DNA from: Candidatus Bipolaricaulota bacterium
Lineage (GTDB): Bacteria; Patescibacteriota; Patescibacteriia; UBA11705; DATKZF01
NCBI GenBank assembly: GCA_035528115.1
Contig: DATKZF010000002.1
Coordinates: forward strand, 5,751 to 69,750
Reading direction: 5' to 3'
Length of the DNA: 64,000 nucleotides
The notes beneath the pieces are model-generated. The model saw nothing but the letters and a program-made list of their open reading frames with translations. It ran no database searches and was not told the origin of the DNA. Every line of letters starts with the position of its first letter. Positions within the stretch are counted from its first letter, which is position 1. Of this stretch, positions 22,064 to 48,330 are shown one piece after another. A program made the translations under genes and the position numbers.

Positions 22064-22168
22064 TTGTTACGAGATTTACAAGATTTTTGTACAAAATCTT
22101 ACAGATTATATAGTTCCATATCTTGTACTATCTGGTATGTAAATCTTGTAGATCTCGTAACTAACATA
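22064..22168. repeat. YGTAA short-repeat array (TCTTGTA / TCTCGTAA units)
   Basis: gttacgagatttacaagatttttgtacaaaatcttacag...atcttgtactatctggtatgtaaatcttgtagatctcgtaac. Confidence 0.5.
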
Positions 22169-23243
22169 TTAATTTAGCCATCATCAATTCCTCATTGGCC
22201 GGCACTACCAACACTTTTGCTTTGATCGGCAATCCCGATATTATCAATTTTCTGATTTGCCCGCTTCTTTCCCCGATTCCGGCGGTGAACGCAATGGCGT
22301 CAACTTTGCCCAAAACAGCGGCGTACGCGCCTATGTATTTTTTGATTCTGTAAACAAACATGTCCAAAGCGAGCTTGGCTGGCTTTTTTTCGGAAGCTAA
22401 AATTTCGCGCATGTCCTTGAAACCGGAGACGCCGTAAAACCCCGATTCGAAATTTAACATTTTTTCAATCGCGGGCAATTTATAACCTTTTTTATTCAAA
22501 TGAAAAACAATGGCCGGATCGATATCTCCGCTTCTGGTGGCCATCATCAAGCCTTCAAGCGGCGTAAAACCCATGGATGTATCTATTGGTTTGCCATTTT
22601 GAATGGCGGAAATACTGCATCCCGAACCCAAATGGCAGGTTATCAAATTCAGCCGACTTAATTTTTTATTCAGTCTTTTTGAGCTGTTTTCAGCCACAAA
22701 CTGATGAGATAATCCATGAAATCCGTAACGTCTGATGTTCATTTTTTCCGTCAGCTTCATCGGTAAAGGATAATACTTTGTCCGATCGGGCAAATCATGA
22801 AAAAAGGCGGTGTCAAAGCAGGCGTAGTTTTTAGCTTGTGGCAACAGCTTTATAACCGCCTTAATTCCTGCCAAATTATGCGGATTATGAAGCGGAGCCA
22901 AGTCGTTTAATTTTTCCAATTCCTTAATATTTTTTGAATTGACCAAAAGCGGTTTATAAAACTTTTCTCCGCCATGAACATAACGGTGTCCGACTTTTTT
23001 CATGGATGAAAGATCGATTTTTTTCGATGTCAAAAACAAAAAAACAGCGGTAATCGCCTCATGATGATTTTTTATTTTAACTATAGTCTTATGGCCGTCA
23101 AAGTCGCAAAACGATTGACCGCTAATTTGCTCCACTATCCCTGCATGAAGCTTCTTTAAATTTTGATCAAACAATTTGAATTTTACACTGGAGGAACCGG
23201 CATTGATTATTAATATCAAATTTCCCATACCAAAATTACTCAA
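22161..23243 (-). CDS. ackA: acetate (propionate) kinase family protein
   Basis: N-terminal ILIINAGSSSVKFKLF (acetate kinase signature 1). About 360 aa. Confidence 0.8.
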   Translation of the reverse strand: MSNFGMGNLILIINAGSSSVKFKLFDQNLKKLHAGIVEQISGQSFCDFDGHKTIVKIKNHHEAITAVFLFLTSKKIDLSSMKKVGHRYVHGGEKFYKPLLVNSKNIKELEKLNDLAPLHNPHNLAGIKAVIKLLPQAKNYACFDTAFFHDLPDRTKYYPLPMKLTEKMNIRRYGFHGLSHQFVAENSSKRLNKKLSRLNLITCHLGSGCSISAIQNGKPIDTSMGFTPLEGLMMATRSGDIDPAIVFHLNKKGYKLPAIEKMLNFESGFYGVSGFKDMREILASEKKPAKLALDMFVYRIKKYIGAYAAVLGKVDAIAFTAGIGERSGQIRKLIISGLPIKAKVLVVPANEELMMAKLIC

Positions 23244-23799
23244 TTATAAGCTCTCCCTCTCCAACCGGCGCCAAATCGGCCGCATTGCCTTCATCAGTGT
23301 CTATTTGAAACGATTGGTCGAAATTCCCTTTCACGCGAATAACAACTTGGTCAAAAACCAAAGCGCGGTCGCCGCCGACTTTTACCTTAACAATATCGCC
23401 GTTCTTTAAACCAAGCTCCGTAGCTTGCGACTCGGAAAGATGAACATGGCGCTTGGCCACTATCAAACCTTCCTTTAACTCCGCTTCTCCCGCCGGACCT
23501 ATGATTTTGATGGCTCCGGAACCGGCCACATCTCCGGAAACCCTGAGCGGGGCTTCGCTGCCGAGAAAAAAAGCGTCCGTTCTGGAAATTTCAACTTGCG
23601 TGTTCACTCTGACCGGACCGATCACGGTCACGTTTTCCAATTGCCTTTTCGGACCGACTAAAGTCACCTTGGCTGAACTGGCGAATTCGCCGTGCTGGGA
23701 TAATTCTTTTCCCGGCTCCAATTTATAACCCTTGCCGAATAATTTTTCCAAATCCTTTTGACATAAATGCAAGTGGCGGGCGGAGATTTCTATTTTCAT
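23236..23799 (-). CDS. pduL: PduL-type phosphate acyltransferase
   Basis: Duplicated PduL modules: ISARHLHLCQKDLEKLFG...VRVNTQVEISRTDAFFLG and IVAKRHVHLSESQATELG. Overlaps ackA by 8 nt. Confidence 0.75.
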   Translation of the reverse strand: MKIEISARHLHLCQKDLEKLFGKGYKLEPGKELSQHGEFASSAKVTLVGPKRQLENVTVIGPVRVNTQVEISRTDAFFLGSEAPLRVSGDVAGSGAIKIIGPAGEAELKEGLIVAKRHVHLSESQATELGLKNGDIVKVKVGGDRALVFDQVVIRVKGNFDQSFQIDTDEGNAADLAPVGEGELIIE

Positions 23800-23808
23800 A
23801 TTTTTTTG

Positions 23809-23866
23809 AATTTACAAGATTACAAGATCAGTGTACAAGATATACAAGATTCCTAATCTTGTGACT
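23809..23866. repeat. YGTAA short-repeat array (TACAAGA x4, inverse orientation)
   Basis: aatttacaagattacaagatcagtgtacaagatatacaagattcctaatcttgtgac. Confidence 0.5.
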
Positions 23867-24254
23867 TTTTCTGATGCTCAGGATCATTTACGACTCGACG
23901 AACCTGAACTTCTTCGCTATTAAATAAAATTATCAGGCCTAATCTCAAATCTGTTGCCACAAGATATTCATATAATTGATCAAAATGTTTTTTTATTATT
24001 TTTTTTCCGACTTTCAATTCAACTAGCATTTTATTTTCTATCAAGAAATCCGCTCTCCTTCTGACAGAGTATTTCCCCTTATGCAATAAATTTATCGCAT
24101 ATTGCCTTTGGACACGAATGCCCTTCTCCATTATCATTTGATAAGCTATATCCTCATAATATCTTTCCCTGAAGCCAAAATCATTTTCATTATAAACCTC
24201 AAAAAATATTCCAATTATCTTATCACTCAAATCTTTATAATAAAACTCTGGCAT
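23853..24254 (-). CDS. GxxExxY family protein (PD-(D/E)xK-like)
   Basis: IIGIFFEVYNENDFGFRERYYEDIAYQMIMEKGI and ADFLIENKMLVELK match the GxxExxY family. Paralog at 35371-35745. Confidence 0.6.
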   Translation of the reverse strand: MPEFYYKDLSDKIIGIFFEVYNENDFGFRERYYEDIAYQMIMEKGIRVQRQYAINLLHKGKYSVRRRADFLIENKMLVELKVGKKIIKKHFDQLYEYLVATDLRLGLIILFNSEEVQVRRVVNDPEHQKKSQD

Positions 24255-24262
24255 ATATTAAC

Positions 24263-24370
24263 AATCTACAAAATCACGAGATCAACGTACAAGATACCAA
24301 ATACGCTAATCTTGTACATCTTGTAATCCGTATAATCTTGTAACGCAATATCTTGTAATCTCGTAAATTA
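24263..24370. repeat. YGTAA short-repeat array incl. ~55-bp unit catcttgtaatccgtataatcttgtaacgcaatatcttgtaatctcgtaa
   Basis: Near-identical unit recurs inside the GT4 ORF at 31096-31160. Confidence 0.55.
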
Positions 24371-24371
24371 A

Positions 24372-25337
24372 TTATTTACTTAAAAGTCCGTTCTGCGCCC
24401 CGATCTTCGCCACCACTGCTCCGCTGTTTTTCAATCCCAAATCCAAAGCTTTTTTCGCGTCATGATCGTATTTTATCAATCCGGCCAAAAAACCCGAGCC
24501 GAAAGCATCGCCAGCGCCGACTGTGTCCACGACGTTTTTTCCCATGGCCGGCAGATGATAAAACTTGCCCGCCGCGTCCAAAAGATTGGCGCCGCCGGCG
24601 CCTTCGGTCACCACCACGGCGATCGGGCCGAGTTGCTTTAATTTATTCGTTAGAAATTTCACGTTGTTTAATTTCGAACTTTTTCCAAAAAAAGTCATGA
24701 CCAGTTGTATTGCTTCGTCTTTATTTACAATCAAAATTTCTGTCTGCGTTAAAAACGGCAACATCAAAGAAACCCGATTAATTTGCTTTTGTCCGGGGTT
24801 CCAAACGATAAGCGAAGCGTCCTTTCTGGCTTTGTTAAAAACTTTTTTTAATTCAACTTCCCAATTTTTCTGGCTTTGAGCGGCGACATAAAAATAATCG
24901 GCTTTGAATTCAGTGAGCAGGGTTTGAGAATAACTAAAATTTGCGCTCGCGCCTTTGTGAGTGAAAATGACGTGATCTTTAAATTTTTTCGAACCCAAAA
25001 TAAAAGAAAAGCCGGTCAGCTCTTTTTTATTTTTTAAAATCAAGGAAACATCAATTCCGTTTTTCTTGAAATTCTCAAGCATCTGATCGGAATCATCTCC
25101 CACGCAGCCCACCGGCGCGACTTTGATCCCCAGTTTATTCAAACCAAAGGAAACATTGCCCGCTCCCCCGCCGAAATTATAATAAACCTTATCAATCGGC
25201 AGTTTGGCGCCGTACTCGAAAGCGAACATTTTCTGGCGCGTCAAATCTTTTTTGTTTTCAATGACAAAAACCTCGTCGCTGAAAAACTCGATGTCTTTGA
25301 TCAAACTTCCAAAAACGGCGACCTGATATTTCTTCAT
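24372..25337 (-). CDS. PfkB-family carbohydrate/nucleoside kinase (ribokinase-like)
   Basis: PfkB signature DTVGAGDAFGSGFLAGL near the C-terminus. GG motif NFGGGAGN near the N-terminus. Confidence 0.8.
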   Translation of the reverse strand: MKKYQVAVFGSLIKDIEFFSDEVFVIENKKDLTRQKMFAFEYGAKLPIDKVYYNFGGGAGNVSFGLNKLGIKVAPVGCVGDDSDQMLENFKKNGIDVSLILKNKKELTGFSFILGSKKFKDHVIFTHKGASANFSYSQTLLTEFKADYFYVAAQSQKNWEVELKKVFNKARKDASLIVWNPGQKQINRVSLMLPFLTQTEILIVNKDEAIQLVMTFFGKSSKLNNVKFLTNKLKQLGPIAVVVTEGAGGANLLDAAGKFYHLPAMGKNVVDTVGAGDAFGSGFLAGLIKYDHDAKKALDLGLKNSGAVVAKIGAQNGLLSK

Positions 25338-25341
25338 AAAT

Positions 25342-26715
25342 TTATTTTAACTTTTCGCTTAAATAATCTTTCAACTCTCCAACCTTCACTCTCTCCTGCT
25401 TCATCGAATCCCGATCTCTGACCGTCACCGAATCATCTTTTTCAATGGTGTCAAAATCAATGGTCACGCAATACGGCGTGCCGATTTCGTCTTGTCGTCG
25501 GTAACGTTTGCCGATATTGCCGTTGTCGTCAAATTCAACCAGCCAATTTTTTCTCAAGGAATCATAAACTTCTCTGGCTTTTTCAACCAGCTTGGGTTTG
25601 TTTTTAAGCAACGGAAACACGGCCACTTTGATCGGCGCCAGCGATATTGGAAATTTCATCACCACTCGTTCGCCATCATCAAGTTTTTCTTCATTGTACG
25701 CTGACAGCAACGCAAGCAAAATACTTCTTTCCAAACCGAAAGTGGGCTCAATCACGTGCGGAATATATTTTTCTCCGGTTCCCGGATCCGTATATTCCAA
25801 TTTTTGACCGGTGGCTTTGGCGTGACTGGTCAAATCAAAATCGGTTCGATTAGCCAAACCGAAAAGCTCGTTGAAACCAAACGGATAATTATATTCAATA
25901 TCAACCGTCTTTTTGGAATAATGACACAATTTTTCCTTCGGATGTTCGCGACGACGCAAATCTTTTTTATCCGCTCCCAGACTCAAAGCGAAAGATTCCT
26001 GATCGTCCAGCCAAGTATCAAACATCTTTTTCCATTTGTCTTTGGGAGAAATGAAGTATTCGATCTCCATTATTTCAAATTCCCTTAACCTAAATATAAA
26101 ATTGCCGGCTACGATCTCATTGCGAAAAGATTTACCGATCTGGGCGATGCCGAAAGGAATTTTAACCCTGGACGAATCCAAAACATTTTTAAAATCAATA
26201 AAAATAGCGCCGGCTGTTTCCGGGCGCAAATAAACAACACTTTCAGCTTCGTCGCTGACATTGTTCATTTCCGTTTTGAACATCATGTTAAACCCGCGCG
26301 CTTCCGTCCAATCAATTGACCCGCACACCGGACACTTTATCTTTCCTTTTTTCAAAACTTCGTTCATTTTCTTCAAATCGCCTTCCAAATCAAGCCCGGT
26401 CGCGTCTTCGACCAAATGATCCGCGCGAAATCTATGTTTGCATTTTTTGCAATCCACCAAAGCGTCGTTGAAGCCTTTGGTATGCCCGGAAGCTTCCCAT
26501 AATTTGGGATGCAATAAAATGGGACCGTCAATTCCCACGATGTCGGGTCTATTGTGAACAAACGTTTTCCACCACAAATTTTTAATGTTTTTTTTCAGCT
26601 CAACGCCGTAAGGCCCGTAGCTATAAGTTCCGGCCAAACCTCCATAAATTTCCGAACCGGGATAGACGAAGCCTCGACGTTTGCACAAGCTGACTAATTT
26701 TTCCATTGTATCCAT
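25342..26715 (-). CDS. glyQS: glycyl-tRNA synthetase, alpha2 (archaeal/eukaryal-like) type
   Basis: MEKLVSLCKRRGFVYPGSEIYGGLAGTYSYGPYGVELKKNIKNLWW N-terminus. Class II motifs. C-terminal anticodon-binding domain. Confidence 0.9.
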   Translation of the reverse strand: MDTMEKLVSLCKRRGFVYPGSEIYGGLAGTYSYGPYGVELKKNIKNLWWKTFVHNRPDIVGIDGPILLHPKLWEASGHTKGFNDALVDCKKCKHRFRADHLVEDATGLDLEGDLKKMNEVLKKGKIKCPVCGSIDWTEARGFNMMFKTEMNNVSDEAESVVYLRPETAGAIFIDFKNVLDSSRVKIPFGIAQIGKSFRNEIVAGNFIFRLREFEIMEIEYFISPKDKWKKMFDTWLDDQESFALSLGADKKDLRRREHPKEKLCHYSKKTVDIEYNYPFGFNELFGLANRTDFDLTSHAKATGQKLEYTDPGTGEKYIPHVIEPTFGLERSILLALLSAYNEEKLDDGERVVMKFPISLAPIKVAVFPLLKNKPKLVEKAREVYDSLRKNWLVEFDDNGNIGKRYRRQDEIGTPYCVTIDFDTIEKDDSVTVRDRDSMKQERVKVGELKDYLSEKLK

Positions 26716-26777
26716 ATTTTTTCATCGATCACGTATCATGGATCACATATCATTTCGAAATGCCCCATGTTCCATGA

Positions 26778-27332
26778 CTATATAGTCATTATTTCCTTCC
26801 TCTTCTTCTCCGCCATTTCTTCCAGGTTTTTGTTTAACGCTTCCACGTGTTTATCCAGTTCCTCGCGATAAGCGTAGCGATTGTCTTCGGTGAGTTCAGA
26901 AGCTTTAAACGCTTTTTCAATTTCTTCTTTCACCTTGTCTCTCAATTGCCTGACGCTGATTTTGGCGGTTTCCAATTTCTCGCCCAAAAGTTTAACGAGA
27001 TTTTTCCTTGACTCCTCGGTCATTTGCGGAAAGACGACGCGCACCACCGTATCGTCTATTGAAGTGCTAACGCCCAAATTCGCCTCAGAAATGGCCTTTT
27101 CAATGCTTTTGAGCAATGTTTTATCCCAGGGCTCGATTCTAAGCGACCGAGCTTCGGGCACGGAAATGCTGGCCAATTGCTTCAATGGCGTGGGCGCGCC
27201 ATAGGCGTCCGCGAAAAGCCCCTCGACCATGGCCGGATTGGCTCGACCGGTTCTGATTTTCGATAATTCCTCTCGAAAAAAATCCATGGAATTTTCAAAA
27301 GCCTCTTTAAATTTGCTTATAAATTCATTCAT
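26778..27332 (-). CDS. frr: ribosome recycling factor
   Basis: 184 aa. EELSKIRTGRANPAMVEGL and VRQLRDKVKEE motifs. Confidence 0.9.
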   Translation of the reverse strand: MNEFISKFKEAFENSMDFFREELSKIRTGRANPAMVEGLFADAYGAPTPLKQLASISVPEARSLRIEPWDKTLLKSIEKAISEANLGVSTSIDDTVVRVVFPQMTEESRKNLVKLLGEKLETAKISVRQLRDKVKEEIEKAFKASELTEDNRYAYREELDKHVEALNKNLEEMAEKKRKEIMTI

Positions 27333-27389
27333 ACGTTTAATTAATAACTAATTTAACTTTTCAAACCACTCTAACTATGAACTTTTAAA

Positions 27390-28448: not shown

Positions 28449-28452
28449 AAAT

Positions 28453-29490: not shown

Positions 29491-29552
29491 AGATTATTAT
29501 AGCATAATATTCATGAAGCATGAATAATGAAACATCAAACCCTCAAAGGACG

Positions 29553-29640
29553 GGGGGGCAGGCAGGTTGTCCACTTTTTGGCGTCAAAAAGTGGGTCGGC
29601 GCCGCCCCAAATGGGCAAGCCGAAACCCATTCTAATTTTA
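29553..29640 (+). repeat. GCAGGCAGG structured element, copy A
   Basis: ggcaggcaggttgtccactttttggcgtcaaaaagtgggtcggcgccgccccaaatgggcaagccgaaac. Hairpin stem covaries with copy B. Confidence 0.5.
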
Positions 29641-29652
29641 TAAAAGCAAGGT

Positions 29653-30258
29653 TTATAAAAAATTTTTGGACTCTTTTAATATTGTCAAATCTCTCTGTAA
29701 GATCATCTTTCCGATTTGATCGTCTGTTGTATCATTTTCAAATAATTCAATAGCTTGCTCAAAATTAACCCAGAGCAATTTAAAACCGAATGCTATTTCT
29801 TTATCTGTAAAGGATGTTTTTCCTTTATTTCCATCAACAACGGCCACATAACAATAAGAAGTGGAGATTTCTTTAACATTGTCACGGTACTCCTTAATAA
29901 TTCCCAACTCTTTAATATTCTTTATTTCACATCCGACTTCTTCCAGGCATTCTCTCTTTAAGGTTTCAATAGGTGTTTCATTTCCCTCAATTCCGCCACC
30001 CGGCAATTTATGATAATCATATTTCCCCACATAAAGCAAAGCCACCTTGAATTCTTCATCAAAAATTACGGTTCTGGAAGCTTTTATTACTTTATAATCG
30101 TCCCTTGGCAAGGCCTCCCTTTCCCTAGCTCTTTGATAAATTGTTTTCAGCATTTTCATAATCGCTCCTTGTTTTCGTAATTTTTGTAGCCGATTAGTAG
30201 ATTCGTAGCTTAATCGCCCAAAATCACTTCCAACGTCTCGCGAGCGCATTTTTCCCAT
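29653..30258 (-). CDS. NUDIX hydrolase
   Basis: Nudix box GGGIEGNETPIETLKRECLEEVG. Confidence 0.75.
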   Translation of the reverse strand: MGKMRSRDVGSDFGRLSYESTNRLQKLRKQGAIMKMLKTIYQRAREREALPRDDYKVIKASRTVIFDEEFKVALLYVGKYDYHKLPGGGIEGNETPIETLKRECLEEVGCEIKNIKELGIIKEYRDNVKEISTSYCYVAVVDGNKGKTSFTDKEIAFGFKLLWVNFEQAIELFENDTTDDQIGKMILQRDLTILKESKNFL

Positions 30259-31400
30259 GAAAATCTCTTTATATTTTCAAAACCTTTGGCGATCAATTCT
30301 TTTCTTAAATTTTCATCAGCGTCAATTTTGTTCATGGCTCGGACAATTTCTTCTTTGCTTTTCGGATCGATCAATAAAGCCGCGTCTCCCGCCACTTCGG
30401 GCAAACTGGTCGTATTGGAACAAATCACCGGGCAGCCGCAGGCCATGGCTTCCAGCGGCGGAATGCCGAATCCTTCATACAAACTCGGAAAAACCAAGGC
30501 TCTCGCGCCGGCCGTTAATTTTGACAAGTCCTCGACGCCCACCCAGCCCGGCGTGATAACGTCTTTTTGCAAGCCGAACTTTTCAATGTTTTCTTTGACG
30601 CGCTCAAAACCGTGCGTCACGAACCCGGAACCGGTTTTTGTATTGCCAACTAAAACCAACTTGCACTCCGGTCGCGATTTTTTGAATTCAGCGAAACATT
30701 CCACCAAAAACGGCGTGTTCTTTTTTTCTTCCAGTCTGCCCGTAAAAATGAAATAAGGTGAATTCAAACCGTATTTTAATTTGATTGATTCGATTTCTTC
30801 AGCCGGATAAATTTTATAATTGCCGGCGTCAAATCCGTTATAAACCACTTTTATTTTTTCAGCCGGAATTTTAAAAACATCCATTATTTCTTTTTTGGAA
30901 AATTCGGAAATGGTGATTATTTTCCAAGCAGAAAATTTGGCGAAACGAAGAGCGTATTTATGATAGACAATATCGTACCAAGGATAAATTTTCGGAAAGC
31001 GCTCAAAGCCTATATCATGCATGGTCACCACGGTTTTCTTCGGATGAAAAAGAGGAATGACATGCGCGGACACGAACAGCCTATCAGGCTCCTTTCCTGT
31101 TTTATCTCGTACATCTTGTAATCTGTATAATCTTGTACAAAAATCTCGTAATCTCGTAACCAACATTTCATAAGACAACCGAAACTGCGTCCACAATCTG
31201 CCCGGCGGCCAATTCAAAATTTTCTCCTCAAAATTTTCAGGACAGTTTTCCAGCCCATCTTTTAGCGGAACATTGGTATATAAAAAATAGCGGTTTTCTT
31301 TATCCAATTTTTTAAACCACTGAATCAAATGATATGAATACCACTCGGTACCCGTTTTATTGGGCTTATTGGCCCGAGAAGCGTCGATGCCAATTAACAT
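30210..31400 (-). CDS. family 4 (GT-B) glycosyltransferase carrying an in-frame 66-nt repeat-derived insertion
   Basis: C-terminal EGFGIPPLEAMACGCPVICS (GT4 E-x7-E region). Residues VTRLRDFCTRLYRLQDVRDKTG are encoded by a copy of the TCTTGTAA repeat unit (31096-31160). Confidence 0.8.
   Translation of the reverse strand: MLIGIDASRANKPNKTGTEWYSYHLIQWFKKLDKENRYFLYTNVPLKDGLENCPENFEEKILNWPPGRLWTQFRLSYEMLVTRLRDFCTRLYRLQDVRDKTGKEPDRLFVSAHVIPLFHPKKTVVTMHDIGFERFPKIYPWYDIVYHKYALRFAKFSAWKIITISEFSKKEIMDVFKIPAEKIKVVYNGFDAGNYKIYPAEEIESIKLKYGLNSPYFIFTGRLEEKKNTPFLVECFAEFKKSRPECKLVLVGNTKTGSGFVTHGFERVKENIEKFGLQKDVITPGWVGVEDLSKLTAGARALVFPSLYEGFGIPPLEAMACGCPVICSNTTSLPEVAGDAALLIDPKSKEEIVRAMNKIDADENLRKELIAKGFENIKRFSWEKCARETLEVILGD
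31096..31160. repeat. YGTAA repeat unit inside GT4 coding sequence
   Basis: cctgttttatctcgtacatcttgtaatctgtataatcttgtacaaaaatctcgtaatctcgtaac is near-identical to the intergenic copy at 24318-24370. Confidence 0.6.
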
Positions 31401-31479
31401 ATTAGGTTATTAGGTAATTAGGTTATTAGGCAAAAACCACTATCCTGTGAATCTAAGAACCTAATAACCTACAAGCTCG

Positions 31480-32487: not shown

Positions 32488-32518
32488 ATTTAAGCGTATT
32501 CTTGAGTATCTTGTAATT

Positions 32519-32606
32519 CCTGCCTACCGGTCTTCGACTCCCGTTCGGCCACGAGCTCACGGCCGAGTGGCGAGCTCAGACTCGAGGAGCAGGCAGGCGT
32601 AACAAA
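32519..32606. repeat. GC-rich palindromic element cctgcct...gagcaggcagg
   Basis: Terminal inverted CCTGCC/GGCAGG motifs enclose an 75-bp GC-rich core in an otherwise AT-rich spacer. Confidence 0.4.
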
Positions 32607-32650
32607 TAACATAAAAGATTGATAGCCGATTGTAATTCGTAACACGCGCT

Positions 32651-33759: not shown

Positions 33760-33960
33760 TTCACATTTCCAGCACCAGGGGTCTGGGGGAAAAGCTGAGC
33801 CATAGCGCGATCCTGGTAATTTAATCGTCGCATCGCGAATCTTTTTCCCCCAGAACTTTCCTGCCTGCCGCCTGCCTGCCGGCAGGCAGGGCAGGCAGGT
33901 TGCCTACTTTTTGGTTACAAAAAGTAGGTCGACGCTGCCCCAAATGGGCAAGTCGAAACA
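33760..33960 (+). repeat. GCAGGCAGG structured element, copy B, with upstream 12-bp-stem palindrome ctgggggaaaag/ctttttcccccag
   Basis: cctgcctgccgcctgcctgccggcaggcagggcaggcaggttgcctactttttggttacaaaaagtaggtcgacgctgccccaaatgggcaagtcgaaac. Confidence 0.5.
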
Positions 33961-35322: not shown

Positions 35323-35370
35323 ACGACTACGAATCTACGAACATTCTACCTATACTACCAAAACAATAAT

Positions 35371-35745
35371 ATGACGGAGATCCTGTATAAAGATTTAAGT
35401 TATGTATTAAATGGCATCTTCTTTGACGTCTATAACACAATCGGTTACGGAAAACGGGAAAAGGCCTATTGCCAAGCGATCATAAAAGCTTTATACAATA
35501 ATAAAATAAAGTTCCTCTATCAATTCAAAGTCCCTTTAATTTATCATGAACATAAAATCGGCAATAGATATGCGGATTTTTTTATTGATGATAAAATTAT
35601 TGTCGAAATCAAAGTTGGAAAAACAACTTCATCTGATTTCAATCAAATAAAAGAATACCTGAACGTATCCGGATTAAAATTAGGATTATTAGTTGCATTC
35701 AAAAAAGAAGAAGTGAAAATATATAGAGTCCTCAATTTATATTAA
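35371..35745 (+). CDS. GxxExxY family protein
   Basis: LNGIFFDVYNTIGYGKREKAYCQAI ... YADFFIDDKIIVEIK. Paralog of 23853-24254. Confidence 0.6.
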   Translation: MTEILYKDLSYVLNGIFFDVYNTIGYGKREKAYCQAIIKALYNNKIKFLYQFKVPLIYHEHKIGNRYADFFIDDKIIVEIKVGKTTSSDFNQIKEYLNVSGLKLGLLVAFKKEEVKIYRVLNLY

Positions 35746-35756
35746 TCATCCTTTCC

Positions 35757-35803
35757 TAGTCTCCATGTTTTCGTAGGATTCGTAACCTTCCGTAGTTTCG
35801 TAG
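35757..35803. repeat. 45-bp TTCGTAA/TTTCGTAG repeat unit (copy 1)
   Basis: ctccatgttttcgtaggattcgtaaccttccgtagtttcgtagtc is near-identical to 39943-39987. Confidence 0.55.
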
Positions 35804-35805
35804 TC

Positions 35806-39735: not shown

Positions 39736-39814
39736 ATATAAAATATAAAAAACAAATATTAAAAATAAAAAAAATTGAATGCCTCATTCGTCCCAAAGGG
39801 ATCCCATTGGGATA

Positions 39815-39987
39815 AATTTGTAACTATTTGTAAAATTCGTACAAAATTCGTAATTTGTAACCTTTTCTCAATTTTAGCAAATTTGGCCAAAAAATCAAAA
39901 AAACATCCCCTTTCCCGGAATGCTTCATTCGTAATCTCCCAAATCCATGTTTTCGTAGTATTCGTAAAGATTCGTAGTTTCGTAGCC
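39815..39987. repeat. TTTGTAA/TTCGTAA short-repeat array incl. 45-bp unit copy 2
   Basis: atttgtaactatttgtaaaattcgtacaaaattcgtaatttgtaacc ... ccatgttttcgtagtattcgtaaagattcgtagtttcgtagcc. Confidence 0.55.
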
Positions 39988-39989: not shown

Positions 39990-40508
39990 TCACTCTTCTT
40001 TTTCCTTCACCAGCATCATGGCCAAAATCGGCAACCCCAGCCAAACCAATCTGCCAATATCGCTAACAAAAACTTCCCTGGTTACAAAACTGAAATTATT
40101 CAAAAAACTTGATGGCAAAAAAGTGAAAATCACGCTGATCAAAAGCCCGATTTGCAAAAAGCTGAACACGATCACCTGCCACCACGCCCCGGAGCTGTCG
40201 CCGATCACCCGGCCCACGGCCGACCGCGAAATCAAGAAAAAACAAACCACCAGTAAAATGATAAACACCGTGGCCTGCAAAACAAAGGCGTTATTGATGC
40301 TGATCGAGCCTTTCAAATACTTTGACCATGGAATGGTGTAAGCGATGGCCAAAGTGATATACAAAGACAATAAAACCACGATGATTCTGCTTCTGCCCAT
40401 GGCAATGCCGTAAAGCAAAGCGCCGACGGTAAAAAAAAGCAAAACGATCAAATCCCAGCTGGGATTCACCCAATCGATTGTTGTAAACCAATCTATGACT
40501 GCGGACAT
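39990..40508 (-). CDS. hypothetical membrane protein (5 predicted TM helices)
   Basis: Hydrophobic ORF. Confidence 0.45.
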   Translation of the reverse strand: MSAVIDWFTTIDWVNPSWDLIVLLFFTVGALLYGIAMGRSRIIVVLLSLYITLAIAYTIPWSKYLKGSISINNAFVLQATVFIILLVVCFFLISRSAVGRVIGDSSGAWWQVIVFSFLQIGLLISVIFTFLPSSFLNNFSFVTREVFVSDIGRLVWLGLPILAMMLVKEKEE

Positions 40509-40604
40509 AAATTTCTGTTTTTATTTTATGAAGTTTAAAACAATTGTTTCATGATTCATGATCCATGTTTCATGATAAGAATATTATAACACAAACCGAT
40601 TCAT

Positions 40605-41195: not shown

Positions 41196-41199
41196 ATTT

Positions 41200-42270: not shown

Positions 42271-42275
42271 AATTT

Positions 42276-42587: not shown

Positions 42588-42657
42588 ATTGACAAATAAT
42601 TAAAAATCGGTTAGATTATATTGAACCGCCGAAAAGGCGCTGACAAGGAGGATCGAG

Positions 42658-43146
42658 ATGTACGCGATCATCTTTCGTCCCGGCGCCAATCTGTTTTGGC
42701 GCGGGACATACGGAAAGTTCGTCAACCGGGTGAAAATGGGAGAAATCAGCGTTTCATCCATAGCCATGCCGACTCCATCGCCAAGCGCGAAAAAACTTCG
42801 CGTGCGATGCGGCTCCGGCAAAGACAAGGAGGTCTTCATCCCTCTCGTTTTGCTGATGGCGGTCGTCATCGGCATACGAAAAGGCGTGCTCTTTCGCGGC
42901 CAAGTGGTGCGGCACCTGTTCATCAGCGAACGCTGGGTGACCGTGCAAATAAATGAACAAGCGCTGTTGAATCTCCTGCCCGGAGAGAGAGGCCAACGAT
43001 TGGCCAAATCTCTGCGCGGCAAGTTGAGGATCCCCAGAGAAATGATCAAGATCTGCCTTGACGTCAGACCCGTAGCCGAAGGCGGCACCCAGATCATCTG
43101 GGACGCCAACGGCTCTCAGAATCCATTCATCAAGAAGGAGTCATAG
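42658..43146 (+). CDS. hypothetical protein in a GC-rich islet
   Basis: AAGGAGG 7 nt upstream of the ATG. About 55 % GC. An antisense ORF of similar size exists (rejected). Confidence 0.35.
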   Translation: MYAIIFRPGANLFWRGTYGKFVNRVKMGEISVSSIAMPTPSPSAKKLRVRCGSGKDKEVFIPLVLLMAVVIGIRKGVLFRGQVVRHLFISERWVTVQINEQALLNLLPGERGQRLAKSLRGKLRIPREMIKICLDVRPVAEGGTQIIWDANGSQNPFIKKES

Positions 43147-43168
43147 ACCAAAGCCCTCGAGCCGCGGT

Positions 43169-45082
43169 CTATTTTTTTTCTTTAAAATCCCCTTCTTGCG
43201 TCTTTTCTTTTTCGTCTTTGGGTTGCTCAGCGTCCGGTTTGGTTTCAGCGCCCGCCTGTTGATTGGCCGCGGCTTGGTTTGAGGCCGCGTACATTTCAGC
43301 GCCTATCTTTTGCGCGGCTTGACCCAAGTCATCGGTCGCTTTTTTAATCGCCTCGAAATCATCGCCGTCTTTTATTTTCTTTAAAGCTTCCAATTTTTCT
43401 TCGAGCGACTTTTTGTCCTCGTCTTTTATTTTGTCAGCTTGTTCTTTAATCAATTTTTCCGTGGTGTAAATCAAACTTTCCGCGATGTTTTTAGCTTCAA
43501 TCGATTCTTTTTTCTTTTTATCTTCCTCGGCGTGAGCTTCGGCGTCTTTTTTCATTTTCTCGATTTCGTCTTTGGACAAACCCGAAGAAGCGGTGATGGT
43601 GATATTTTGCTTTTTGCCCGTGGCCTTATCGGTCGCGGAAACATTCAAAATGCCGTTGGCGTCAATATCGAAAGTCACTTCAACTTGCGGAATGCCTCGC
43701 GGAGCCGGCGGTATGCCGTCCAAAATGAATCGACCCAAAGCTTTATTGTCCCCGGCCATTTCGCGCTCGCCCTGCAAAACATGAATTTCAACCGAAGGCT
43801 GATTGTCCCCGGCCGTGGAAAAAATTTGAGATTTGGAAGTCGGCACCGTGGTGTTTCGCTCTATCAATTTGGTCATCACCCCGCCCAAAGTTTCCAGTCC
43901 CAAAGAAAGCGGAGTCACGTCAAGCAATAATACGTCTTTGACATCGCCCTGCAAAACGCCGGCCTGAACGGCCGCGCCAATGGCCACGACTTCATCCGGA
44001 TTGACTTCCATATTGAGTTTTTTGCCGAAAAACTCTTCGACTTTTTTCTGAACCAGCGGCATTCTGGTCATGCCGCCGACCAAAACGACTTCGTCTATTT
44101 TCGATTTGTCGAGCTTGGCGTCGTCCAGCGCTTTCTTGCATGGCTCAATCGTTTTCTCCACCAAATCCATGACCAGCTCTTCAAGTTTGGCGCGAGACAA
44201 TCTCAAATCAAGATGCAAAGGACTGCCGTCTTTATCCTGAGTGATATAAGGTTGATTGATCAAAGCTTCTTGGCTGGAGCTCAATTCGTGCTTGGCTTTT
44301 TCCGCGGATTCTTTAATTCTTTGCAAAGCCATTTGATCCTTTTTCAAATCAATGCCATTTTGCTTTTTAAACTCTTCGACTATCCAATCAATAATCTTTT
44401 TATCGAAATCATCTCCGCCAAGATGCGTGTCCCCGTTGGTGGACAAAACCTCAATGGTATCGTCGCCGATATCCAAAATGGAAATATCAAAAGTGCCGCC
44501 GCCAAGATCATAAACCGCGATTTTCTGATTTTTCTTTTTATCAAAACCGTAGGCGAGGGCCGCGGCCGTCGGCTCATTGATGATTCTTTTCACCTTCATG
44601 CCCGCGATCTCGCCCGCGTCTTTGGTCGCTTGTCTTTGAGAGTCGTCGAAATAAGCGGGCACGGTGATGATCACCTCTTCGATTTTTTCGCCCAATTTGC
44701 TCTCCGCGTCAGCTTTCAGTTTTTGCAAAATCATGGCGGAAATTTCCTGCGGCGAAAACTCCTTGCCATCCATAGCCACTTTTATACCGGAACCGGACTG
44801 TTTTATTTCGTATGACATGTTCTCCATATCCTCTTTCACTTCCGCGTCATCGGCTCGGCGGCCAATCAATCTTTTCACGGAATAAACAGTGTTCTTCGGA
44901 TTGGTCACGGCCTGGTGTTTGGCTGTCTGCCCGACCAGTCTCTCCCCTGTTTTTGAAATCGCCACAATGGACGGAGTGGTTCTGTTGCCCTCCGAATTTT
45001 CCAAAACCTTGGGCTTGCCGCCCTCGACAATGGCCATGCAGCTGTTGGTTGTTCCCAAGTCAATGCCTAGAATTTTACTCAT
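43169..45082 (-). CDS. dnaK: chaperone DnaK (Hsp70)
   Basis: [26 protein letters not shown], and EEVD-less bacterial C-terminus. 637 aa. Confidence 0.95.
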
Positions 45083-45086
45083 ATGT

Positions 45087-45162
45087 GTTTTACAAATTTA
45101 CGAATGCGTTACAAAATTTGTAATTATTTGTATCATTTGTAATCGATTTGTAATTTGTAACT
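45087..45162. repeat. inverted+direct TTACRAA / TTTGTAA array immediately upstream of dnaK
   Basis: tttacaaatttacgaatgcgttacaaaa then tttgtaa units at 45117, 45127, 45136, 45147, 45154 (7-11 bp spacing). Confidence 0.6.
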
Positions 45163-45373
45163 CTTTAATATTTACTCACCCGAAGCGAAGAAACTTTCCT
45201 CGCCTCGAAAAGCAAACATTTAATTAGAGGGCTATAGAAGCCTTAAGAAGGCTAAAGAAGTAAATGGGACAAGAAGATTAGAGATTTATAAGGTATAAGA
45301 CAATCTCCAAAAAACTCATAAAAGCCCTCTTTTCATCTTGACTCCCATACCTTTCAAGCCTTATCAAGCCCCC

Positions 45374-45811
45374 TTAAGCCTTCTTCCCGTTTTTATTTTT
45401 AGCGATCACTTTGACTTTTTTCGCGGACGGCGCTTTTTCTTTCGGAATCACGACTTTTAAAACTCCGTCTTCGAATTCGGCCGCGGCCTTATCGCCCTGC
45501 ACGTGCGCGGGCAGAGCCAGCGAGCGGTAGAAACCGCCGGCGTGAATTTCCTTTCGATAATAATTTTTCTCTTCCACTTCAGACTTTTTCTCGGTCTTTC
45601 CTTTAATGGTCAGAATATCGTTTTCAACCGAAATATCCAATTTATCAGGATCAATGCCCGGGAGTTGAGCTTCCACAATGACATTGTTTCCTTTTTCATA
45701 CATGTCGATGGCCGGCAAAAACCCGGCGATCGCGCCGCGTTTCATGTCGTCGAAGATTTTATCGAAATCCCCGAACGGCTCCATGAACGGACTCCATTTG
45801 ATTAATGGCAT
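45374..45811 (-). CDS. Hsp20/alpha-crystallin small heat-shock protein
   Basis: Alpha-crystallin core (…GVLKVVIPK…). Start placed at MPLIKW with AAGGGGGAA RBS. Confidence 0.8.
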   Translation of the reverse strand: MPLIKWSPFMEPFGDFDKIFDDMKRGAIAGFLPAIDMYEKGNNVIVEAQLPGIDPDKLDISVENDILTIKGKTEKKSEVEEKNYYRKEIHAGGFYRSLALPAHVQGDKAAAEFEDGVLKVVIPKEKAPSAKKVKVIAKNKNGKKA

Positions 45812-45963
45812 ATTATTTTCCCCCTTTGTTAGCCCATTGAAGACTAACATTATTTATTTTTTTAGATGCTGGAAGATAGATTATGGGTTTGGATGCTGGA
45901 ATTTTTTCTGTTTCTAGCCTCTAAACCCACGCCCAGCCTCTAGCATCCCAAATTATTAATTTT

Positions 45964-46449
45964 TTACTTAGAAACAATTACTTTTGCAAAAACAACGGTC
46001 TCTTTATTCAATTCATATCCCGGCATTACCTCTTTAACAATCACTCCTTCTTTTTCATCGGACGTTTCCTCCCCCACCGCTTCGTGCAAAGTCGGATCGA
46101 ATTTTTCGCCGACGGTCTTTATTTGCTCCACTCCCCAATTTTTCAAAATCTCATCCAATTGCCGCTTAATGCACATAAACCCTTTCACCCAATTATCGTC
46201 TTTTTTATTTTCGGGCACGCTTTTTTCAGCCTGGCAAAACGAATTTAAGACCGGCAAAATCCCGACAATCAAATCTTTTTTTATGAATTTGCCCAGCTCC
46301 GCTTGCCTGGCTGACGATTCTTTCAACAAATTTTCATAATCCGCTTTGGCGCGTTGCCAGCCGGCCAAATTTTCCGCGGCTCTGTCCGTTAATTCCTGAA
46401 TCTTCTTCGGCCAATTTTTATCGTCTTTTTTTCTTTCTTCTTTGCTCAT
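45964..46449 (-). CDS. grpE: nucleotide exchange factor GrpE
   Basis: C-terminal VGEKFDPTLHEAVG...VVFAKVIV beta-domain signature. Coiled-coil N-terminus. Confidence 0.8.
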   Translation of the reverse strand: MSKEERKKDDKNWPKKIQELTDRAAENLAGWQRAKADYENLLKESSARQAELGKFIKKDLIVGILPVLNSFCQAEKSVPENKKDDNWVKGFMCIKRQLDEILKNWGVEQIKTVGEKFDPTLHEAVGEETSDEKEGVIVKEVMPGYELNKETVVFAKVIVSK

Positions 46450-46450
46450 A

Positions 46451-47137
46451 TTAATTCAATTCTTCTGTTAAAAATTTTAACAATGATAAATTATTCTCAT
46501 AATCCATTCTGGTCGCGCCCAAAATGACTATTAAATGATTTTTAACCGGAATCATGGCCGAACCGCAAGCCTCGCTGAATCGATTTTCTTTGCCGATTTC
46601 TATTTTTATGTCTTTTGATTCAATCCGTTCTTTGAAAATATTGAAGATCACCTTATCCAATTCATCCAACACCGAGCTCAATTCAAAAATCAAATTTCTC
46701 TCTTCAAATTCCGGCTTGGAAAAAAGATTGCTCAAGCCGGTATAATAAACATCATTTTCCGCGAACGCCACGATCACCGCGTCCCCGGACGCTTCAGCCA
46801 CTATTTTGGCGATTTCTTTCAAACCCTGCCGAACATCTTTGCCCATGATTTTCTTTTGCTTTTTTATTTTCTCGGCGATGGCCGATTGAAGCTTTTTTCC
46901 TTTGATGAAATTTTCCAAATAAAATTTGTAACCTAGCTCGGTCGGGATCCTGCCCGCTGACGTATGCGGCTGATAAATAAAGCCCGCTTTTTCCAATTCG
47001 GCCATTTCATTTCTGACCGTGGCCGAGCTGACTTCGTCTTTTAATTTTCCGACCAGAAACCCGGAAGCCACGGGCTCGGCCGTCTTTATATAGTGATTGG
47101 TTAAATTTTTGAGCAATTCCTTCTGCCTTTCTTTCAT
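46451..47137 (-). CDS. hrcA: heat-inducible transcription repressor HrcA (short form, 228 aa)
   Basis: N-terminal winged-helix EPVASGFLVGK...VSSATVRNEMAELEKAGFIYQPHTSAGRIPTELGYKFY. CIRCE abuts its start. Confidence 0.7.
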   Translation of the reverse strand: MKERQKELLKNLTNHYIKTAEPVASGFLVGKLKDEVSSATVRNEMAELEKAGFIYQPHTSAGRIPTELGYKFYLENFIKGKKLQSAIAEKIKKQKKIMGKDVRQGLKEIAKIVAEASGDAVIVAFAENDVYYTGLSNLFSKPEFEERNLIFELSSVLDELDKVIFNIFKERIESKDIKIEIGKENRFSEACGSAMIPVKNHLIVILGATRMDYENNLSLLKFLTEELN

Positions 47138-47138
47138 A

Positions 47139-47165
47139 TTAGCAGTCTTATTATGTGAGTGCCAA
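47139..47165. promoter_or_regulatory. CIRCE operator (TTAGCAGTC-N9-GAGTGCCAA)
   Basis: Matches CIRCE consensus TTAGCACTC-N9-GAGTGCTAA at 16/18 positions. Lies 2 bp upstream of the hrcA start codon. Confidence 0.7.
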
Positions 47166-47204
47166 TTTCATTATAGCAATATAAAAAAAGGTGTCAAGGA
47201 TTAT

Positions 47205-47565
47205 GACTACGAACCTACAAAATACTACAAATACTACGAAAACAAAGCCATATTAATAATATTCGTAATTATTTGTATTAAATTCAAAACCTTTTATTTG
47301 TAAATTCGTAACCATTGGTAACCACTTAAATAAATATTCGTAACATTTGTAACCATTCGTAACAAAACAAAAAAAACTACAGCCAAGTCTAGCTTATTAG
47401 ATGTAGTAATTTGTAATCCACCCAAATACCTGTCCCATTTGTAATTATTCGTAATAAAACCCAAATAATTTTTATTTTTAATAATTTGTAACCACTCAAT
47501 TGCCAATTCAATTTGTAACTATTTGTAATAAAACTTCAAAAACAAAAACTAAGGCTATCTTAATA
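47205..47565. repeat. long array of TACGAA/TTCGTAA/TTTGTAA units and composite AGCTTATTAG-N8-10-TTTGTAA repeats
   Basis: For example atttgtaattattcgtaataaaac, atttgtaactatttgtaataaaac, tagcttattagatgtagtaatttgtaa, ctatcttaatagcggcagtcatttgtaa. Confidence 0.55.
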
Positions 47566-47610
47566 GCGGCAGTCATTTGTAATAAATTTAAAACCGCCGA
47601 TTTCATGCAA

Positions 47611-48072
47611 TCAGCGGCTGTCTTCACTGAAATAGAAGTCCCTGTCCGGCCGCAGACTGTGCGGCAGGTTCTGCGCCGCCCAGCTCATCAGCCTAGCCAC
47701 GGCCACCACGACCAAAATGTCGCCGCACTCAGCCGCTTTCATCCAGTGGATGAAAACCGCGTTCATGAAGAGCTCGGCCTTCTTTGTCATCGGCTTGATC
47801 TTGATCTCGCCAACGAAACTCAACTGATCTTCGTAGAACCGCATGGCCAGAAACGCCCGGCCGTCGATCGACACTCCTTCAAGCAAGTGAACATCCGGAA
47901 AGGGAAGACCATCGGGCTTCAAGGAAAACATCCTGGCCGCGCCCGGGTTTCCGATGCGCGTCTGAATCAACCCTCCCTGTTGCGAGAACAAGGCCACGAA
48001 AAGCCTCCTCCCAACTATTGAATACGGCACCAGCGCCACCTCTTGATCTTGTTGCACCTGAACCTCCTTCAT
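47611..48072 (-). CDS. hypothetical protein in a GC-rich islet
   Basis: AAGGAGGAG RBS directly upstream. About 58 % GC. Bounded by repeat arrays on both sides. Confidence 0.4.
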   Translation of the reverse strand: MKEVQVQQDQEVALVPYSIVGRRLFVALFSQQGGLIQTRIGNPGAARMFSLKPDGLPFPDVHLLEGVSIDGRAFLAMRFYEDQLSFVGEIKIKPMTKKAELFMNAVFIHWMKAAECGDILVVVAVARLMSWAAQNLPHSLRPDRDFYFSEDSR

Positions 48073-48159
48073 AGTCTCCTCCTTGCGTGATAGTGGTTGG
48101 CAGTCGAGAACACGTTATCGAAAAAGGCGGTCATTGTCAAACAATGCGCGAGCTTTTAG

Positions 48160-48330
48160 GTAGTAGCTTATTAGCTTTTCAGGTAGCTCCCAACCAGCCA
48201 ATAAGCTGATTTGTAATTATTCGTAATTTCTAGGCAAAGGCAAGCTTAATAGCTTCAGTAATTCGTAATAAAACAGGTAAACCTAAACCTAGCTTGTCCT
48301 ATTAGATTCTACTATTCGTAATTTTAAAAA
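48160..48330. repeat. composite AGCTTATTAG ... TTCGTAA repeat array
   Basis: tagcttattagcttttcaggtagc..ccaataagctgatttgtaattattcgtaa, aagcttaatagcttcagtaattcgtaa, ctagcttgtcctattagattctactattcgtaa. Confidence 0.5.

Follow-up and report, generated by a model that had tools for sequence, protein, structure and literature searches.

Arrays of short inverted repeat units accompany GxxExxY nuclease genes in a patescibacterial genome

The DNA considered here (the window) is a stretch of 64,000 nucleotides from Candidatus Bipolaricaulota bacterium, placed by GTDB within the Patescibacteriota (assembly GCA_035528115.1, contig DATKZF010000002.1, forward-strand positions 5,751 to 69,750), and coordinates count from its first letter. 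Between 20 and 52 kb, it holds a block of minus-strand housekeeping genes that includes murJ, ackA, a pduL-like gene, pfkB, a class II tRNA synthetase gene, frr, holB, mreB, corA, dus, cysS, dnaJ, dnaK, hsp20, grpE and hrcA. Arrays of short YGTAA-type repeat units occupy spacers of this block, and two small genes of the GxxExxY family (TIGR04256; PF13366 or PDDEXK_3) lie among them, each bracketed by units of its own type. A first-pass annotation had described the arrays and offered two explanations, i.e., sites for a DNA-binding protein, as operators or iterons, or a family of miniature mobile sequences.

Short repeat units and GxxExxY genes in the housekeeping block

The units are 7-9 bp long, separated by gaps of 1-4 bp, and present in both orientations. 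As the first-pass annotation had proposed, two types divide the region, with ATCTYGTA (type 1) at 22-32 kb and ATTYGTA/TTCGTAG (type 2) at 32.6-48.3 kb, and every intergenic region it listed contains units. Their frequency is above expectation: ATTYGTA has 52 matches in the window and ATCTYGTA 21, whereas dinucleotide shuffles give 19.8±4.6 and 2.7±1.7, respectively, and neither count is reached by any of 100 shuffles (0/100 in each case). The unit 7-mers are 15-21x enriched in intergenic over coding DNA. Spacing from unit to unit is 7-11 bp, as first reported, and mainly 8-10 bp, while Tandem Repeats Finder returns periods of 8-11. The variable position of the unit is a CpG-to-TpG transition, as read from the unit lists. 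Array polarity is constant, in that reversed units (TACRAAT) precede forward units (ATTYGTA) when read from left to right, e.g., --+++++, ---+++++ or ----++++++++++++++; each array is therefore an imperfect palindrome.

The two GxxExxY genes within this region are:

23853-24254, minus strand: GxxExxY gene 1, 133 aa, PD-(D/E)XK nuclease (PF13366 E = 1.3e-24; TIGR04256 91.4 bits)
35371-35745, plus strand: GxxExxY gene 2, 124 aa, PD-(D/E)XK nuclease (PF13366 E = 9.4e-25; TIGR04256 84.3 bits)

Their PF13366 scores, 87.3 bits for gene 1 and 87.7 bits for gene 2, lie well above the family cut-off of 22 bits (35 bits for TIGR04256), and the two proteins are 40% identical to each other. Gene 1 is bracketed by nested inverted repeats at 23809-23828/24350-24369 (20 nt, 95%) and 23834-23851/24308-24325 (18 nt, 94%), and gene 2 by an inverted repeat at 35325-35339/35791-35805 (15 nt, 93%). 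The units of these brackets are ATCTYGTA at gene 1 and TTCGTAG/ATTYGTA at gene 2, an arrangement that explains why there are two unit types and why they are regionally separate. Type-1 arrays lie no more than ~9 kb from gene 1 and type-2 arrays no more than ~13 kb from gene 2.

In an alignment of 50 sequences that includes the gene 1 protein, residues D69, E79 and K81 are invariant, together with E30 and Y33 of the GxxExxY motif. An AlphaFold2 model of the gene 2 protein (predicted local distance difference test score, pLDDT, 95.7) has a PD-(D/E)XK core, and the nearest structures found by Foldseek were Cas4 SSO0001 (4ic1, E = 3.5e-5), lambda-exonuclease-like and restriction-endonuclease-like proteins and Hjc resolvases, with a further match to the I-Bth0305I homing endonuclease domain (3r3p, E = 1.1e-2). 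Judged from the model, the GxxExxY protein is a generic minimal PD-(D/E)XK nuclease, with no specific subfamily singled out by the fold search. A sequence search of the PDB with the family profile gave a marginal match only (3cae, 'Endonuclease I', E = 0.67). No other transposase or HUH gene, of the Y1 kind or of the kind encoding a REP-associated tyrosine transposase (RAYT; REP, repetitive extragenic palindromic), was found among the window proteins scanned. The family is large, with at least 2,792 relatives at E <= 1e-8, and PDDEXK_3 has been listed as of unknown function (Steczkiewicz et al. 2012, PMC3424549).

The arrays are, in order along the window:

22066-22161: gene-less type-1 palindrome of 96 bp in the spacer between the ackA stop and the murJ start (arms 22066-22103 and 22124-22161)
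23809-23851: type-1 arm 3' of GxxExxY gene 1, with four ATCTTGTA units
24267-24369: type-1 array 5' of GxxExxY gene 1, with reversed then forward units in plus-strand order
31104-31160: six-unit type-1 array (five exact ATCTYGTA), in frame within a minus-strand GT4 glycosyltransferase gene (30210-31400), in the part encoding the N-terminal domain
32505-32645: minor sites 5' of mreB, namely a single ATCTTGTAA unit (32508-32516) and a ATTGTAATTCGTAAC di-unit (32628-32645)
35325-35345: type-2 arm 5' of GxxExxY gene 2, two reversed CTACGAA units
35762-35805, plus strand: four-unit composite arm 3' of gene 2, TCCATGTTTTCGTAG-ATTCGTAA-TTCCGTAG-TTTCGTAG, between convergent genes
39814-39866, plus strand: five-unit forward type-2 arm upstream of cysS
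39927-39985, plus strand: one unit together with the four-unit composite in a gene-less copy, just past the stop of open reading frame (ORF) 39990-40508
45089-45162: gene-less type-2 palindrome, three reversed and five forward units, ending 7 nt before the dnaK ATG
47205-47582: the most extensive type-2 field, immediately 5' of the hrcA -35 box, with four reversed units (47205-47243) and then ~14 forward units
48160-48325, plus strand: four forward type-2 units, including the di-unit ATTTGTAATTATTCGTAAT and composites

YGTAA arrays are confined to 22-48.4 kb, with none at 1-20 kb or 52-64 kb of the window, in the preceding 5.7 kb or in the next 10 kb, so that they span 26 kb of the ~80 kb examined. 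The first-pass view that they are concentrated in front of minus-strand operons does not hold: most lie in co-directional spacers, i.e., 3' of one gene and 5' of the next, while one (35746-35805) occupies the spacer of convergent genes and another (31104-31160) coding DNA. At the latter, two homologues of the glycosyltransferase are shorter by 12-15 residues. The genes adjacent to arrays (murJ, ackA, pfkB, mreB, cysS, dus, dnaK and hrcA) have no common functional theme, and arrays abut the start codons of dnaK, murJ and the pduL-like gene.

Whole multi-unit arms are duplicated between loci as blocks. The forward arm upstream of cysS (39814-39866) and that upstream of dnaK (45114-45166) are 79% identical over 53 nt, and the composite copies at 35762-35803 and 39944-39985 are 88% identical over 42 nt; the recurrence of this composite had been noted before, at a length of 45 bp that is here reduced to 42 nt. 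A second proposed composite, AGCTTATTAG...TTTGTAA, was recovered in part, with four copies at 78-100% identity (47394-47416, 47469-47491, 47560-47582 and 48246-48268); AGCTTAWTAG-N-ATTYGTAA composites occur among the forward units of the 47205-47582 field. The 19-nt di-unit ATTTGTAATTATTCGTAAT is identical at 47437-47455 and 48209. Upstream of dnaK, reversed units at 45091, 45099 and 45110 face five forward units at 45119-45156, just as first described. Other arms are single and have no local pairing partner (39814-39866, 47261-47582 and 48209-48320).

Several arrays are predicted to fold into stable hairpins, with z-scores down to -7.9 against shuffles. The arms of the 22066-22161 palindrome (38 nt, 79% complementary) fold at -33.7/-36.4 kcal/mol per strand (z = -7.4/-7.9), and the minus-strand RNA of 24267-24369 at -33.1 kcal/mol (z = -4.5), while the dnaK-upstream palindrome reaches z = -2.7 on both strands and the single arm at 39810-39870 z = +0.6. 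No U-tracts follow the array hairpins. Scans of promoter and terminator consensus sequences gave counts not above those in shuffles, and the sole convincing site was the hrcA promoter (47136-47197, minus strand), a perfect TTGACA-16-TATAAT with a TG extension; the controlling inverted repeat of chaperone expression (CIRCE, 47139-47165) abuts the ATG, and the repeat field begins immediately upstream of the -35 box. Shine-Dalgarno sequences are missing for most window genes, whose 40-nt leaders are A/T-rich, and AGGAGG-like sites are few (1970, 47611 and 59638).

The size of the units bears on whether the arrays could be guide arrays of the CRISPR (clustered regularly interspaced short palindromic repeats) or TIGR (tandem interspaced guide RNA) kind, plasmid or origin iterons, or DNA uptake sequences. 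The resemblance is superficial, in that short conserved units are arrayed in non-coding DNA, and such an identity is scarcely credible. Units of 7-9 bp with gaps of 1-4 bp leave no space for spacers, and searches of the whole window with Rfam at gathering threshold and ARAGORN gave no match to known RNAs; cas, Tas-like and replication genes were not found, nor was a switch in origin skew. A CRISPR array needs ~23-50 bp repeats and unique spacers, and no cas domains occur in the scanned proteins, in line with the first-pass judgement. A TIGR-Tas array reportedly consists of ~36-nt tandem units, each holding two spacers, beside a Tas (Nop-domain) gene, compared with periods of 8-11 nt here and no Tas-like gene among the scanned proteins. 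A report on TIGR systems mentions such arrays from Patescibacteria (PMC12045711). Origin iterons, one of the two forms of binding site first suggested, are direct repeats beside a rep gene or DnaA boxes at a single origin; this reading is not supported, as the units occupy more than ten loci, measure 7-9 bp rather than 17-22 bp, follow an inverted polarity, are accompanied by no rep gene or other origin signature, and lie where cumulative GC skew falls monotonically through the region. DNA uptake sequences often occur as inverted pairs; yet they are spread evenly, whereas the units here are limited to 26 of ~80 kb.

Units around GxxExxY genes in other genomes

The link between gene and repeat extends beyond the window. 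A set of 80 metagenome loci was picked by protein pattern alone, and 72 independent loci with both flanks were analysed. In the 120 bp upstream of the GxxExxY gene, the core ATYNGT occurs 150 times in reversed and 13 times in forward orientation, while downstream it occurs 136 times forward and 24 times reversed, with 19.5 expected in each case. Longer forms follow the same rule: ATTCGT has 57 reversed copies upstream and 51 forward copies downstream (expected 2.5), and ATTYGTA has 47 and 38 (expected 1.5), whereas two scrambled control motifs are flat around these loci. Inverted 6-mers common to both flanks have a median of 10 compared with 3 in shifted controls, and 34/72 loci exceed the 99th percentile of the control. 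ATTCGT reaches 7.3/kb in the flanks, compared with 1.5/kb in the remaining ORF-free DNA of those contigs and 0.5/kb where ORFs cover the DNA. The association of GxxExxY genes with repeats can be regarded as almost certain.

Unit and protein also vary together. On two contigs carrying two paralogues each, the units differ between paralogues, with ATTCGCA versus ATTCGT units on L092 and ATCTGTGG/ATCAGTGT versus ATTCGTGG units on L134. Locus pairs with the same unit have a protein identity of 41.6% compared with 38.3%, a value reached in 0/1000 permutations, and the ATYNGT core is kept across loci whose proteins share merely 33-46% identity. A 78%-identical homologue (P0002, locus L083) lies in a different context, between hydrogenase-maturation (hyp) genes, with the four-unit composite of the window on both sides of it; across the four copies from the window and L083, 34/47 columns are invariant and mean column identity is 86%. 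This block is one that the window shares with another organism. A 52%-identical homologue lies between ATTACGGAT and ATCCGTAAT, and a 55%-identical homologue between murD and ftsW in Falkowbacteria (L167) is enclosed by a near-perfect terminal inverted repeat (TIR) of ~31 bp comprising four units. For the protein P0031, all occurrences represent one locus, giving no evidence for multiple insertion sites. At L083 9717-9940, a 45-bp block of four reversed units is present in 4.9 tandem copies at 97% identity, and arrays can therefore expand by higher-order duplication.

The L083 block also suits a purely neutral origin, in which local replication slippage in AT-rich spacers generates microsatellite-like repeats with no trans factor and no link to a gene. 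Slippage or unequal exchange does expand arrays there, and tandem periods of 8-11 bp and the CpG-to-TpG variation within the unit agree with it. As an account of the arrays as a whole, however, it is highly improbable, since units recur at more than ten separate loci with multi-unit arms matching over 42-53 nt, a strict orientation rule holds around 72 unrelated GxxExxY genes, the units are paralogue-specific, and inverted arms are not a product of slippage.

Arrays at orthologous positions in relatives

A 138-kb ENA metagenome contig and a Logan contig both encode a DnaK identical to that of the window, and the window proteins also appear on a contig of 762,837 bp. By HrcA, the closest relatives within the GTDB species set belong to the Patescibacteria, at 35-50% identity; they do not carry the units of the window in quantity, and the 7-mers over-represented in them are scattered instead of forming arrays. 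A window-based detector found analogous palindromic arrays with other units in distant relatives within the candidate phyla radiation (CPR). No GxxExxY gene was present in the surrounding DNA examined at the arrays of these distant CPR loci or of L179, L180 and L182.

Closer relatives (DnaK 81-85% identical) show synteny around hrcA-grpE-hsp20-dnaK, and their arrays reveal both gain/loss and retention. The spacer upstream of hrcA measures 473 bp with ~18 units in the window, whereas in relatives it measures 99-139 bp and contains the promoter and CIRCE only, with no arrays. Conversely, L180 has a type-1 palindromic array upstream of Wzy_C, and none exists at that place in the window. The palindromic array upstream of dnaK, in turn, is kept in three relatives and can be aligned unit by unit, while its variable core base differs concertedly on the two arms (window, ACAAA; L180, ACGAA; L179, ACTAA/ACGAA).

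An ORF at 47611-48072 (minus strand), or the overlapping 47605-48021 (plus strand), lies between two forward-unit fields; its strand is uncertain, the public gene call being plus. The spacer that holds it measures 99-139 bp in relatives, and it may be cargo or spurious. None of the ORFs between arrays (47611-48072, 39990-40508 and others) matched a family. Other repeats were seen upstream of genes in more distant loci, namely TGTTCAY x5 preceded by TGAGCA x3, which could pair through G-U, upstream of dnaK in L016 (11237-11272), ACAATT x3 upstream of dnaK in L008 (3955-3985), and MraZ-box-like AAGTGG repeats upstream of mraZ in L006 (460-540), followed by ACGAAT/ATTTGTAA units.

The retention of the dnaK-upstream array, with the units of both arms changed in concert, would suit host operators, whereby a trans-acting protein, either a domesticated GxxExxY protein or an unrelated one, binds the phased units and controls housekeeping or heat-shock genes while the GxxExxY genes merely autoregulate. 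The spacing of 8-10 bp is close to one helical turn, arrays abut the dnaK, murJ and pduL-like starts or sit just upstream of the hrcA -35 box, and short-unit palindromes are found upstream of dnaK/dnaJ in distant CPR lineages too. With phased direct-repeat operators of the OmpR/PhoB type or the heptads of the CtsR type, only the spacing and the promoter or start-codon position are compatible. Overall, regulation of this kind is unlikely, though worth weighing: arrays also lie between convergent genes and within a coding sequence, they are gained and lost at orthologous spacers, they adjoin genes with no functional theme, and the composite accompanies its gene into an unrelated genomic context. 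Moreover, the catalytic residues of the nuclease are invariant, and a pure repressor would not need them.

Alternatively, structure alone may matter and unit sequence be irrelevant, with the hairpins acting as leaders (e.g., a dnaK thermosensor), as transcript-end or stabilising hairpins, or as RNase III sites that excise the GxxExxY mRNA, in a manner likened to rRNA intervening sequences or Correia elements. Fold scores are strong for the 22.06- and 24.3-kb arrays and for relatives' arrays upstream of dnaK in L180 (z = -6.5) and L005 (z = -7.2) and of dnaJ in L017 (z = -4.7), arms co-vary in orthologous arrays, most genes have no Shine-Dalgarno sequence, so that structure at the start codon could matter, and the L167 TIR (~31 nt) encloses its ORF within an operon. 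We nevertheless hold this to be distinctly unlikely. Complementarity alone would not require the ATYNGT core to be kept across such divergent proteins, many single arms have no local partner, distant family members have direct instead of inverted flanks, the hairpins are without U-tracts, and the functional strand is ambiguous.

Additional sequences of the window fall outside the two unit types. Two copies of a ~66-nt element (29556-29625 and 33888-33958, 85% identical), each preceded by GGCAGG repeats, form a hairpin with a compensatory change (CCACTTTTTGG...CAAAAAGTGG versus CTACTTTTTGG...CAAAAAGTAG) and have no Rfam match; they could represent a small RNA or another repeat family. GC-rich CCTG/CCTGCC palindromes (CCTGCCTGCC...GGCAGGCAGG) occur at 33860-33899 and 13266-13300, the latter followed by a T run and resembling an intrinsic terminator assembled from short repeats. 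GC-rich, structured-looking stretches in AT-rich spacers beside GGCAGG repeats (32528-32597 and 13130-13265) likewise have no Rfam match. ATTAGGT x4 faces CCTAATAACCTA at 31400-31471, just upstream of the GT4 gene, and arrays of other units (26716-26760, 40546-40576 and 29510-29530) include TGATM upstream of the class II tRNA synthetase gene and TTCATGA x4 upstream of ORF 39990-40508 and near holB. Positions 1-20000 carry plus-strand genes at 32-39% GC with spacers of 250-700 bp and no YGTAA arrays, are compositionally unlike the housekeeping block and may be an island. Finally, a 2439-aa ORF at 52022-59341 (plus strand) has 60-67% GC in a ~40% GC genome, ~600-bp internal repeats of 71-83% identity and no Pfam family; as the gene is found in three independent assemblies, the jump in composition is not a chimera.

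A proposed family of nuclease-linked palindromic elements

Taken together, the arrays are probably the cognate repeats of small GxxExxY elements. In a full element, the gene would stand between reversed 7-9-bp units (core ACNRAT) on one arm and forward units (core ATYNGT) on the other, and the two arms would form long terminal inverted repeats around it. Gene-less whole palindromes, such as 22066-22161 and the one upstream of dnaK, or single arms would be non-autonomous derivatives, comparable to miniature inverted-repeat transposable elements (MITEs) or to REPINs, the doubled form of REP sequences. Each nuclease paralogue would be paired with its own unit variant, so that the window would hold two paralogues and two unit types. 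The nuclease may bind its own units cooperatively, for which a spacing of 8-10 bp, about one helical turn, is suited, and may cut at or near the arms, or at a hairpin or cruciform, upon which repair or recombination would copy arms, together with the gene or without it, into intergenic DNA close by. Master copies would then keep the units within a genome alike through gene conversion. Such cutting and copying would explain the missing target-site duplications, the block-wise similarity of arms, their local clustering and their concerted change. Some copies, notably that upstream of dnaK, have been retained for long, which suggests co-option, perhaps as the leader hairpin of a gene with no Shine-Dalgarno sequence.

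Of the two explanations first offered, a family of miniature mobile sequences fits the palindromic arrays, the copied arms, the presence and absence at orthologous spacers and the in-frame copy, while the DNA-binding protein finds a candidate, missed in the first-pass annotation, in the GxxExxY nucleases whose genes the arrays bracket and which may bind the units.

A number of observations nonetheless weigh against spread by GxxExxY elements. The dnaK-upstream array has been kept at the same position in three relatives, and the short-unit palindromes upstream of dnaK/dnaJ in distant CPR lineages have no GxxExxY gene within 10 kb; both points agree with a host function as well as, or better than, with selfish spread. 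Two assemblies (L001 and L002) are 100% identical over 15.6 kb of the array region and therefore provide no evidence for ongoing instability, and a strict empty-versus-filled pair for a gene-carrying element was not obtained among the loci compared. Inspection by eye showed no target-site duplications beside the outer ends of four elements (22066-22161, 23809-24369, 35325-35805 and that of L167). In distant members outside CPR, i.e., on a Fusobacteria plasmid and in Persicobacter, the flanking repeats are direct (of the ATC(A/C)GT or AATCC kind), not inverted. At most metagenome loci, few gene-less arrays lie within ±4 kb of the gene, and the dense spread in the window may therefore be unusual. 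The strand asymmetry of fold energies (G-U versus A-C) is mixed across arrays and favours neither DNA nor RNA as the functional form.

The closest likeness is to REP/REPIN sequences and their RAYT transposases (PMC3116915, Bertels & Rainey 2011; PMC3337134; bioRxiv 10.1101/2021.07.10.451892). Both systems comprise short, hairpin-forming palindromic intergenic repeats with a cognate single-copy gene flanked by inverted repeats, every paralogue has a repeat family of its own, copies lacking the gene exceed it in number, and copies persist at orthologous positions. However, the REPIN-RAYT gene encodes an HUH/Y1 (IS200-like) transposase, whereas a ~125-aa PD-(D/E)XK nuclease is encoded here, and a single 20-40-bp REP, doubled in the REPIN, stands against 2-18 units of 7-9 bp. 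Because these two defining features differ, the arrays may work similarly to REPINs but are not members of that class. In addition, REPINs belong to Proteobacteria and the present arrays to CPR/Patescibacteria, with the gene family also in other phyla, and REPINs are described as vertically inherited, whereas here copies cluster near the gene and one gene-repeat module lies in an unrelated context. With regard to MITEs, the 22066-22161 element (38-nt arms, 96 bp) and the dnaK palindrome (45089-45162) are small and non-coding with terminal inverted repeats, and differ from MITEs in showing no visible target-site duplication.

Arrays of subterminal motifs are also known at transposon ends, such as the 12-bp TnpA motifs of maize En/Spm-CACTA, the AAACGG repeats of Ac/Ds and the multiple end-binding sites of Tn7 and Mu, where the motifs are bound by an element-encoded protein and DDE-type transposases produce target-site duplications. 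These transposons likewise have short motif copies clustered at both ends in opposite orientation, and their non-autonomous derivatives keep only the ends; in contrast, the sole protein encoded here is a minimal PD-(D/E)XK nuclease, no duplications were seen, and the elements are 0.1-0.6 kb. The Correia elements or Neisseria miniature insertion sequences (NEMIS) and the Rickettsia palindromic elements (RPEs) are MITE-like, form hairpins and are co-transcribed with their neighbours, and RPEs are found in frame within coding sequences, as is the 31104-31160 array. Yet they are defined sequences of 100-150 bp with no associated gene, in the case of Correia with TA duplications, and are not composed of reiterated 7-9-bp units. 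In free-standing homing endonuclease genes, among them some of the PD-(D/E)XK kind (I-Bth0305I, PDB 3r3p; I-Ssp6803I), a small nuclease gene of related fold (3r3p) may likewise lie between housekeeping genes, as does the L167 gene between murD and ftsW, and spread through break repair would explain why target-site duplications are missing; unlike the elements here, they have no flanking arrays of short inverted units and leave no numerous gene-less palindromes. Lastly, the intervening sequences of 23S rRNA genes, excised by RNase III, carry a small ORF (the 'S23p' four-helix bundle, PF05635/TIGR02436) inside inverted repeats able to form a long transcript stem, but with an unrelated protein fold and no reiterated short units.

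On this basis, the arrays look like a REPIN-like family of selfish palindromic elements in Patescibacteria that has previously been undescribed. No description of the gene-repeat link was found in literature on GxxExxY, PF13366 or TIGR04256 or on CPR repeats and mobile elements, a search that left most subscription journals outside its coverage, so that a prior report is possible. More tentatively, and with the odds somewhat against it, GxxExxY proteins could be the engines of an unrecognised class of intragenomic replicators, in which a minimal nuclease recognises arrays of its own ATYNGT-type 7-9-bp units and spreads and homogenises palindromes, with or without the gene, in compact CPR genomes, as a nuclease counterpart of REPIN-RAYT with some copies co-opted as leader hairpins of chaperone genes.

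In practice, arrays of this kind cause assembly breaks and mis-called ORFs, and the flank rule, with reversed units upstream and forward units downstream, offers an easy annotation signature. Paralogue-specific recognition of 7-9 bp by a 125-aa protein would suit the study of DNA-recognition codes. If the proposed account is true, it would give a role to GxxExxY/PDDEXK_3, a widespread family of small proteins of no known function, and add a second, mechanistically distinct population of repeats tied to a cognate gene, driven by a nuclease and not by an HUH transposase. Such a second example bears on the persistence of selfish or symbiotic DNA where genomes are streamlined. The account would further explain what a large part of the little intergenic DNA of certain CPR genomes consists of.

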